From a virus: a DNA stretch of 64,000 nt. Both the position numbers and the translations under genes were made by a program. The stretch covers positions 11,422-75,421 of IMG/VR virus record IMGVR_UViG_3300031552_000003; one strand, given 5' to 3'. Position 1 is the stretch's first letter. Each line of letters starts with the position of its first letter. Below are positions 62,222-64,000 of the stretch, piece by piece. Below the pieces are notes generated by a model. That model was not told where the DNA came from, ran no database searches, and worked only from the letters and a program-made list of their open reading frames with translations.

Positions 62222-62320
62222 GATTTAAAGGTTGTTAAATTGAATATTTAAACTAAAGACATGTAATTGTACAAATCTATATCGTAAGTTTAACCTACGC
62301 ATGATTAAACATGTTTTTAG

Positions 62321-62986
62321 CTATAATTCAGATTCGACAAAATACCCTGATTCATCTTTTTTTATTTCGGATGGCAAATTATCAATAGGTACATCATAAT
62401 CTTTTAAGATTATTTCTTCATCTGTAGCAATTCTTTCAATACCTATAATACCGTTTTTTAAAGTAATTATAATCATAGCTTTATTTTCAAAATTGGTTTT
62501 ATTTTCTTTGTCCCAAACAAAACTGTATTGTATTGCTTCCGCGATATGGCAAGCTGTAATAATCTTACTAAATTCCATTTGAGCAATTACATTACTGATT
62601 TTTTCAATTAAATCAATTCGAGATAACGACAAATCAAGTTTATCAATTGCATTTTTTAATAAACTGTTTATACCAATATCCGGTTTCCAAACAGGAGACG
62701 GGGATTGTTTTGATTTAATAATTCTTTTTTTAATATCTTCAATAGTTTCAAAGTGTTTTTCATTTTCAAAAAACGAAAGGGCTGGTTTTGATAATTCTAT
62801 GTTTATATCCCCATTTTTTGAAAAGTTACCAAAGAACCCTTTGCAAAAATCTTTGATTGTTTGATAATCACTTTCAGCGTTAGGGTATTCTTGTTTATCA
62901 AACCAAATCGATATACTAAAATTTCCTGTTTTTGCAATTTCAATAGCCCTAAAAAGATTTGGCCAAATTCCTATGATGTTTTTCAT
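62321..62986 (-). CDS. ComM/YifB (Mg-chelatase-like) derived protein lacking the ATPase core
   Basis: RAIEIAKTG and LS...IEKISNVIAQME...HIAEAIQY resemble ComM segments; no Walker A/B. Confidence 0.55.
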   Translation of the reverse strand: MKNIIGIWPNLFRAIEIAKTGNFSISIWFDKQEYPNAESDYQTIKDFCKGFFGNFSKNGDINIELSKPALSFFENEKHFETIEDIKKRIIKSKQSPSPVWKPDIGINSLLKNAIDKLDLSLSRIDLIEKISNVIAQMEFSKIITACHIAEAIQYSFVWDKENKTNFENKAMIIITLKNGIIGIERIATDEEIILKDYDVPIDNLPSEIKKDESGYFVESEL

Positions 62987-63016
62987 GATTAAAAAGTTTT
63001 AGTTTATACCTGTAAA

Positions 63017-63043
63017 ATCCGCTATCCAATGTGAATAGCGGAT
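63017..63043 (-). terminator. Hairpin, probable terminator
   Basis: ATCCGCTAT...ATAGCGGAT followed by UUU on the minus strand. Confidence 0.6.
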
Positions 63044-63066
63044 AAACTTATATTTTTATTGAAACA

Positions 63067-63333
63067 TTATAATTCATCATCAACCTGACAACAATATTTT
63101 GCATCATCAAAATCATCGTATTCCAGATGGCAACATGGGCAAACATATACAGTTTTGTATTCCTGATAATCATTAAATCCGCAACGATAAGCGGTAGGAT
63201 CAACACTTTGTAAGATATCCGAAGGAAGATACCCCATAAATTCAGGATAACATTCATCTAACATATCATCATAGTCTTCCATTGTGTACATTTCCACTTC
63301 TTTTGAAGTAGGATTAATAAGTTTAGTTTTCAT
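63067..63333 (-). CDS. Acidic hypothetical early protein
   Basis: Likely start MKTKL at 63333; YDDMLDECY, VDPTAYRCG, CPCC. Confidence 0.65.
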   Translation of the reverse strand: MKTKLINPTSKEVEMYTMEDYDDMLDECYPEFMGYLPSDILQSVDPTAYRCGFNDYQEYKTVYVCPCCHLEYDDFDDAKYCCQVDDEL

Positions 63334-63350
63334 TGTATTAAGTTTTAATT

Positions 63351-63405
63351 GGTTAAGATACATTATCAAATGTATTTCGGCTATAAAAGCACTCATCAGT
63401 TAACC
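63351..63405 (-). ncRNA. Type I hammerhead ribozyme
   Basis: GGUUAA CUGAUGA GUGCU-UUUAU-AGCC GAAA UACAUU-UGAU-AAUGUA UC UUAACC: full catalytic core, three stems, AUC cleavage triplet. Confidence 0.88.
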
Positions 63406-63541
63406 TAAAAAAAAGAAAATCAAAAAGGGGGAATATAATTAAAAAAAAATATCAAAGAGTAATCAACTTTGCTTGTTATTTCAATATCAAAAATCATAAA
63501 CCCCTTTTTGATTATCTAAAAAAAGCCTATTTTGTTTTAAT

Positions 63542-63720
63542 CAACGCTATTTACGTATTTATCCCTTTTGGTTGGCCGATGTTTCAGGCCGATTGTCCTG
63601 GTTAAAGTAAAAGGGCAAATCCCTGGTTTATACGAAACCGACGTTGGTAGATATTCGCTTTTGGGTATGCACAGGAGTAATCTACATCCCTTCGTTTATC
63701 AGTGAAATAAACCTCACTTC
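63542..63720 (-). ncRNA. Candidate structured non-coding RNA, class unknown
   Basis: ORF-free and GC-enriched; six nested or serial stems; starts just downstream of a promoter. Confidence 0.5.
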
Positions 63721-63731
63721 AAAATCATAAT

Positions 63732-63763
63732 CAAAGATACTATACAAAATCATTATCACCAAA
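63732..63763 (-). promoter_or_regulatory. Bacteroidota sigma70 promoter
   Basis: TTTG - 20 nt - TATCTTTG. Confidence 0.65.
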
Positions 63764-64000
63764 AACCACCACCTTGATACATAGCCATAAAACAACAATC
63801 TTAAATTAAATTATCAAACTTAGATTAATTTGTGATAATAAAAATACGGGCTTAAAAACAGTATAAAAACCAACCTTCAAAAAAAAGAAAAAAACCAAGC
63901 TATAAAAAAACAATAAAATTAACTAAAACTATATAGTAATGTAAGTACAATAGAGAAAAGAGAAAGGGTGATAATATAAAGGTGATAATAGGGTAAAGGG

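Follow-up and report, generated by a model that had tools for sequence, protein, structure and literature searches.

The window, that is, the whole stretch of 64,000 nucleotides that was analysed, corresponds to bases 11422-75421 of a phage genome of 75,421 bp. Among listed sequencing runs, its sequence is partly represented in two salt-marsh metagenome DNA runs and in no RNA run. The plus strand carries structural genes (portal, head, tape measure and fibre). On the minus strand, a leftward block begins at 63333 with about 12 small ORFs and continues into replication genes, which code for an SNF2 helicase, a primase, a PolA-type polymerase with UDG and exonuclease domains, a clamp, RecA and an SMC-like ATPase. 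The product of P0001, the first gene of this block, is very acidic, has a C-terminal CPCC...YCC cysteine cluster and no Pfam match, and may be a small zinc-binding early protein. Ahead of P0001, on the same strand, lies a complete hammerhead ribozyme, preceded in turn by a structured leader and a promoter-like site (Table 1). The sequence-only reading had put this ribozyme at the head of an early operon; as a positional inference this fits, with small ORFs and replication genes downstream and a promoter-like site upstream.

Table 1. Features of the hammerhead locus, listed in the direction of transcription (positions in the window; R1 is a covariance model derived from 15 phage hammerheads that do not include the one in the window)
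Feature	Position	Strand	Details	Basis
Bacteroidota-type promoter-like site TTTG-N20-TATCTTTG	63732..63763	-		inferred from motif
ORF-free structured leader, about 320 nt	63407..63726	-	GC-enriched	fold z-score -2.16
Complete type I hammerhead ribozyme, 55 nt	63351..63405	-		direct sequence read and R1 covariance model
A directly 5' of stem I	63406..63406	-		conserved in family
Stem I, 5' strand GGUUAA	63400..63405	-	pairs with 63356-63351	
Catalytic core C3-A9, CUGAUGA	63393..63399	-	contains a spurious ATG, 63396-63394	sequence read
Stem II hairpin GUGCUUUUAUAGCC	63379..63392	-	G10.1-C11.1, bulged U63391, G-C, C-G, U-A, loop UUUAU	
Core G12 A13 A14, GAA	63376..63378	-		sequence read
Stem III hairpin AUACAUU-UGAU-AAUGUAU	63358..63375	-	7 bp with A15.1-U16.1; loop UGAU	
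C17, predicted scission 63357/63356	63357..63357	-		position from hammerhead consensus
Stem I, 3' strand UUAACC	63351..63356	-	predicted 5' end of the cleaved mRNA	sequence read
A directly 3' of stem I	63350..63350	-		conserved in family
A/U-rich leader UUAACCAAUUAAAACUUAAUACA, 23 nt	63334..63356	-	without Shine-Dalgarno sequence; left on the mRNA after the predicted cut	
P0001, 88 aa, first gene of the leftward operon	63067..63333	-	function unknown	phrog_9294

The element has type I topology: stem I is open, loops cap stems II and III, and its parts follow one another in the order stem I 5' strand, core, stem II, GAAA, stem III, UC and stem I 3' strand. Our direct read agrees with the complete minus-strand type I hammerhead with a bulged stem II that had been proposed initially, and the comparative evidence presented below agrees with it as well. 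All 13 invariant core positions are intact, as are the flanking adenines and stem I with its 6 bp, and the leader has the length most common in the family. The closing pair of stem II, G10.1-C11.1, is present as G63392-C63379, and in the R1 alignment of the window the bulged U63391 is an insertion after G10.1. Following G12 A13 A14, A63375 and U63358 form the A15.1-U16.1 pair. It is this pair that the initial description of stem III left out: the hairpin was correctly recognized, but its length is 7 bp with that pair included and not 6. The cleavage-site base H17 is C63357, hence not G, in line with the requirement of the class. On re-reading the coordinates, both the position of the predicted cut between 63357 and 63356 and the 23-nt leader that it would leave before the ATG at 63333 proved correct.

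The automatic ORF call at this locus starts farther upstream and gives a protein of 109 aa. The suspicion that this longer start is wrong is supported by several observations. Its ATG is nothing other than the AUG of the catalytic CUGAUGA, homologues of P0001 align from residues 1-3 of the 88-aa form, and an ATG located 18-24 nt past the cut is the norm in the ribozyme family to which the element belongs. The extended start is doubtful also because it would be translated through an element conserved as structure and not as protein, as seen from the compensatory changes of stem III in two relatives, L002 and L118. The 109-aa ORF call is therefore to be corrected to 88 aa.

A scan for sigma-70 promoters and terminators stayed at background, and the Bacteroidota promoter motif was used instead. 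Only four full matches to the latter occur on the minus strand of the 64-kb window, including the one at 63763-63732. The ribozyme lies about 325 nt downstream of this promoter-like site; it is preceded by a non-coding region of about 600 nt and has no credible ORF upstream. At its 3' end the intervening leader features a 13-bp inverted repeat (63513-63501/63430-63418) followed by a U-run, UUCUUUUUUUU (63417-63407), which directly adjoins the ribozyme. The leader RNA had no Rfam match in a 601-nt search at E ≤ 10 and no homologue in 2.2 Mb of loci; a scan with a 17-nt leader pattern returned just unrelated matches in GC-rich phages. It may represent a phage ncRNA or a leader of the attenuator type.

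The relatives of the element turned out to be numerous. A pattern confined to the core and stem II (CTGATGAGTGC-N4-10-GCCGAAA) recovered L002, its duplicate L094, and L118. Both L002 and L118 have stem I and the bulged-U stem II identical in design to those in the window, and their stem III arms are fully compensatory replacements: CUGGUA-GCGA-UACCAG in L002 and CCGCC-CUCG-GGCGG in L118, compared with UACAUU-UGAU-AAUGUA in the window. The flanks of these two loci are unrelated to those of the window, with only some 33 nt of ribozyme sequence alignable. A second pattern, GGTTAACTGATGAG-N8-20-CGAAA, was present in at least 119 stretches in viral contigs, compared with a rough chance estimate of about 10. 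It was also found in 35 genome-contig stretches, mostly in Bacteroidota genomes or MAGs and small phage-like contigs. Among the matches listed, UUAACC occurred within 90 nt in 144 out of 180, which yielded 126 distinct complete hammerheads. When 100 sources were searched with R1, 160 copies were detected; the family thus numbers at least 160 copies, spread over about 100 viral contigs. Searches of other kinds gave no such relatives: blastn of 62300-64000 against isolate phage records produced no match, none were found via the 221-aa P0002, and R1 had no matches in 15 loci collected through P0001 homologues, one of which has a type II hammerhead. Nor was R1 found in 150 other sampled Bacteroidota genomes; with strict filters and few candidates reaching the scoring step, this is weak evidence.

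The family alignment (A2) bears the marks of a conserved RNA structure. Paired cells make up 99.5% of it, 407 cells are changed on both sides, and such double-sided changes affect 10 of the 15 pairs. Covariation in it scores 0.540, whereas shuffles give 0.115, none of the 500 attaining the observed value, and slid controls give at most 0.047; having been fitted to the R1 model, the alignment leans towards the hammerhead structure. As to the individual positions, the core reads CUGAUGA in 127 and CUGACGA in 16 of the 150 family rows, N7 being the sole variable core base. GAAA is invariant (150/150), and H17 is C in 123 rows and A in the other 27, never G or U. The G10.1-C11.1 pair is GC in 132 out of 134 rows. 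The window element is hereby confirmed as a genuine type I hammerhead and a member of a large phage family with covarying stems II and III. The family is under structural selection, and in its sequence the window copy has everything a hammerhead needs.

Given these data, the idea that a hammerhead-like string without function simply arose by chance is effectively refuted. Across all 75,421 bp of the genome, scanning with a descriptor identified this as the sole site with long stems (6 bp in stem I and 7 bp in stem III). In 400 random genomes of the same size and composition (first-order Markov, both strands) no hammerhead-like match was found, even with thresholds relaxed to at least 3 bp for stem I and at least 4 bp for stem III. 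It might be argued in favor of chance that Rfam models give no score to the site, and that the MFE z-score of the isolated element is just -1.15, a value uninformative for a 55-nt ribozyme. Against this stand the more than 150 covarying relatives of near-identical architecture and the score of an independent family model: across the whole genome, with filters off, R1 matches the site at 46.4 bits (E 4.6e-10) over the full model positions 1-50. The second-best R1 site in the 75-kb genome, also with filters off, has only 11.8 bits, and the phage therefore has a single copy of the ribozyme.

The silence of Rfam deserves a comment, as the sequence-only reading had looked to its hammerhead models for confirmation. 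They leave the site unmatched, just as they miss every canonical family member tested. Rfam cmscan at the gathering threshold gave no hammerhead match in the whole window, and at E ≤ 10 neither the 271 nt nor the 601 nt around the site yielded a hammerhead or anything else credible. With RF00163 (Hammerhead_1) run over the whole genome, the site remained unmatched, not reaching the curated gathering threshold of 34 bits. RF00163 of Rfam release 15 and its clan likewise reported nothing at gathering in 8 loci that hold at least 25 canonical family copies, and a type II hammerhead in locus L010 also went unreported. Since Rfam misses textbook relatives too, we rejected it as a test and attribute the miss at our site to model coverage and not to the element. 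A practical consequence is that standard annotation pipelines will overlook an abundant phage hammerhead family, because the Rfam models miss it as a whole.

The family shows a number of regularities. Among 139 copies, stem I is preceded by A in 99% and followed by A in 96%; the search pattern imposed neither of these bases. It was conceivable that the invariance of stem I was an artefact of that pattern. We rejected this explanation, as stem I measured exactly 6 bp in 145 of 155 copies even with a descriptor blind to its sequence; this figure is still subject to ascertainment bias, since the loci had been selected on the presence of a GGUUAA copy. Compensatory variants of stem I are seen occasionally (GAUUAA/UUAAUC, GGUCUA/UAGAUC and GUUAUA/UAUAAC). 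Loop II has a conserved 5-nt form, U-N-A-R-U; the loop present in the window, UUUAU, is a minority form that occurs in 4 members. The bulge after G10.1 is rare as well, occurring in 6 of 134 distinct members, and the bulged base differs among them. The adenines at -1 and +1, the fixed 6-bp stem I and the conserved loop II are only suggestive of a tertiary contact between the regions of stems I and II, such as hammerheads require to cleave fast at physiological (low) Mg2+, and no covarying pseudoknot was identified in the family.

Equally regular, and likewise not imposed by the search pattern, is the setting of these ribozymes. Between the cut and the next ATG that opens an ORF there are typically 22 nt (median; interquartile range 20-23), the commonest values being 23 (n=23) and 22 (n=22); in the window the spacing is 23 nt, ahead of the 88-aa ORF and within the range of 18-24 nt typical of the family. 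The tail between the ribozyme and the start codon is A-rich and G-poor, and so lacks a Shine-Dalgarno sequence. The genes that follow are small, with a median of 74 aa, and most are ORFans; one codes for an anti-restriction protein. On the upstream side, 80 of 139 copies have the stop codon of the preceding ORF inside the ribozyme or reaching into its first base, as the UAA of GGUUAA (38 copies), the UGA of CUGAUGA (25) or a UAG across bases -2/-1/+1 (17). These embedded stops imply that the elements are transcribed inside polycistronic RNAs, as a kind of intercistronic punctuation. Such a position is typical (80/139) but not universal, and the window copy, which has no upstream ORF, is one of the exceptions. 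Many contigs hold 2-9 co-oriented copies separated by a few hundred nucleotides.

Some features are restricted to parts of the family. In 14 of 126 distinct members, stem III resembles an intrinsic terminator, being GC-rich and running into UUUU (for example, UAAAGGCCCC-UAAAUU-GGGGCUUUUAU); the loci concerned include L156, L158, L194, L207, L210, L227, L233, L241 and L262. Because of this resemblance, one and the same hairpin could serve both as stem III of the ribozyme and as a terminator or 3'-end protector. In several copies of L181 and in L249 the leader is longer, 38-45 nt, with conserved AAAAGUCAG..GCAGACUAUAACAGGC directly after UUAACC. Very dense arrays are found in L273 (9 copies in 5.8 kb) and L280 (6 in 2.7 kb). 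These two, together with L289, L263 and L278, are small contigs binned into 'Aliivibrio' and gammaproteobacterial MAGs, and L284 belongs to a 'Streptomycetaceae' MAG; such array contigs in non-Bacteroidota MAGs are probably mis-binned phage fragments.

Hammerheads of other groups were also met. Locus L010 (IMGVR_UViG_3300027777_000207) has at about 1400-1480 an apparent type II hammerhead, GAUC-GAAA-CCCGC GCAA GCGGG-UC-UAAGGG UUUAG CCCUUA-CUGAUGA-GAUC, which precedes a P0001 homologue and ends about 20 nt from its ATG. The window and L010 thus have the P0001 gene family in common and differ in ribozyme topology, and R1 does not report the L010 element. The scan with the stem II pattern also brought up a separate type I group consisting of L003, L045, L133 and L134 (probably also L044 and L122). 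This group has the bulged-U design of stem II in common with the window (GUGCCC...GGGCC); its stem I is ACCCU/AGGGU, and its stem III, ACUCUAGG...CCUAGGGU, is long.

How does the window element compare with what is known? With the GGUUAA-stem-I family it shares the 6-bp stem I, the A/A flanks, the 5-nt loop II with U at its ends, stem III with A15.1-U16.1, C17, and an A-rich leader, here of 23 nt, before the ATG of a small ORF. Unlike most of the family, it has a bulged U after G10.1 (6/134) and very A/U-rich, weak helices. Unlike 80 of the 139 copies, it has no upstream ORF ending inside the ribozyme, and its genome has one copy, whereas some contigs of the family have up to 9 in 5.8 kb. A functional parallel may be drawn with RiboJ, which Lou et al. 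reportedly introduced in 2012 in Nat Biotechnol: a hammerhead-type ribozyme placed between promoter and RBS that is said to remove a variable leader and to leave a defined 5' end. RiboJ was reportedly engineered from a satellite-RNA ribozyme with an added hairpin and is said to work with Shine-Dalgarno RBSs in E. coli. The element in the window, on the other hand, is natural, comes from a phage and is followed by a leader without a Shine-Dalgarno sequence; any likeness would be functional only.

Thousands of natural hammerheads are known, including those in phage intergenic regions (Perreault et al. 2011, PMC3088659). In phages and prophages they flank single genes such as ardA, and in the haloviruses HF1/HF2 a hammerhead is located 13 nt upstream of the start codon of an early helicase (PMC3088659). 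The window element resembles the hammerheads of that study in class and core, in its location in a phage early region just upstream of a start codon, and in its presumed inclusion in a longer transcript. Unlike in the clusters described there, the window copy is single, stands at the head of an operon and is situated behind a long non-coding leader. Clustered hammerheads bracketing genes are absent here, the whole 75-kb genome having a single R1 match with filters off. The core in the window is the consensus, whereas that of HF1/HF2 is a variant, and the window copy falls into the A-GGUUAA...UUAACC-A subfamily with 6-bp stem I that Rfam models leave undetected. The family motif string was not found in the supplement text of PMC3088659 or in a literature search, which does not show that the family is unpublished. 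In summary, it is well supported that the window element is real and of a kind known since 2011, its particulars being the single copy at an operon head, the long structured leader and the rare bulge. More distantly, certain fungal and plant RNA viruses carry in their 5' UTRs type I hammerheads that are needed for cap-independent translation (2026, PMC13725137). There, too, a type I hammerhead occupies a viral 5' UTR ahead of an ORF; however, those are RNA viruses of eukaryotic hosts in which cleavage is tied to translation, whereas ours is found in a DNA phage of a bacterium, where any such tie would be hypothetical.

All this leads us to propose, with a probability of roughly 0.8, that a leftward replication/early-type operon of this 75-kb siphovirus-like phage, whose host is probably one of the Bacteroidota, contains in its 5' leader a type I hammerhead that is functional. 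Transcription would start at the putative TTTG/TAnnTTTG promoter about 325 nt upstream of the ribozyme, and the emerging ribozyme would fold and cut after C63357. The structured upstream RNA of about 370 nt would then depart together with the ribozyme body, its 3' end carrying a 2',3'-cyclic phosphate. After the cut, stem I, weak with its 6 bp, would melt. The mRNA would begin with 5'-OH-UUAACC, followed by the rest of an unstructured, A/U-rich 23-nt leader without a Shine-Dalgarno sequence and then by the ATG at 63333. The 5'-OH end of the mRNA and the release of upstream RNA, both put forward in the sequence-only reading, follow from hammerhead chemistry if the ribozyme is active.

The most likely purpose of such a ribozyme would be the trimming, or insulation, of the leader of the early mRNA. 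Trimming would provide the first gene with a short structure-free leader, as members of the family would do for small genes inside operons, and would uncouple translation and decay of the mRNA from the structured RNA upstream. Genes of Bacteroidota phages mostly lack a Shine-Dalgarno sequence. Across the family, the tight cut-to-ATG spacing combined with diverse A-rich tails indicates that the constrained partner of the ribozyme is the downstream start, and trimming or insulation is therefore favored. A bolder version, which we regard as rather unlikely, is that in these phages the ribozyme and its fixed-length A-rich leader of about 22 nt constitute an obligatory translation-initiation/insulation module, with the same cut, in the phage studied here, also freeing a new structured ncRNA of about 370 nt made from the early promoter. 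Such a module would act by setting free a 5'-OH at a fixed distance from the AUG, as needed for efficient translation downstream.

The main alternative to insulation is that the cut merely separates two RNAs or releases a ncRNA. On this view, the main job of the ribozyme would be forming the 3' end of a stable structured phage ncRNA of about 320-370 nt, the mRNA leader being a by-product. The layout of the locus lends this some appeal: directly upstream of the ribozyme are a promoter-like site, an ORF-free foldable segment (z -2.16), the 13-bp repeat and the U-run, and the upstream product would keep both the stem III hairpin and the cyclic phosphate, each protecting the 3' end. Yet most copies of the family have a coding ORF as their partner on the upstream side, the leader RNA has neither an Rfam match nor a detectable homologue, and the tight spacing between ribozyme and ATG singles out the downstream gene as the constrained partner, all of which makes ncRNA formation very unlikely as the main job. 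A different challenge concerns activity itself. The hammerhead might be genuine by descent but catalytically weak or decaying in an AT-rich phage, so that most transcripts would stay uncleaved with little effect on expression. Its stem II is bulged, its stem III is all A/U, and structure upstream may compete with it. At -8.0 kcal/mol, compared with the family median of -17, the hammerhead fold is among the weakest of the family and lies 1 kcal/mol above its own MFE. In the MFE structure of the full 393-nt leader, stem III forms, and stems I and II do not. The copy is also single, the element being absent from the other intergenic gaps of the genome. We nevertheless find such decay improbable. 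The 13 invariant core positions, the flanking A/A and all 6 bp of stem I are intact, the leader is of modal length, and the bulged variant persists in two other phages with a compensatory stem III, which argues for selection. Moreover, hammerheads with stems II of only 1-2 bp are active (PMC3088659).

Bacterial and phage hammerheads still largely lack an assigned biological role, and the window copy alone would add little to their understanding. It is the regularities of the family, namely the cut-to-ATG distance of about 22 nt, the A-flanked 6-bp stem I, the embedded upstream stops and the small ORFan genes downstream, that turn an unknown role into a concrete hypothesis, according to which these ribozymes would trim or insulate leaders for translation that does not rely on a Shine-Dalgarno sequence.
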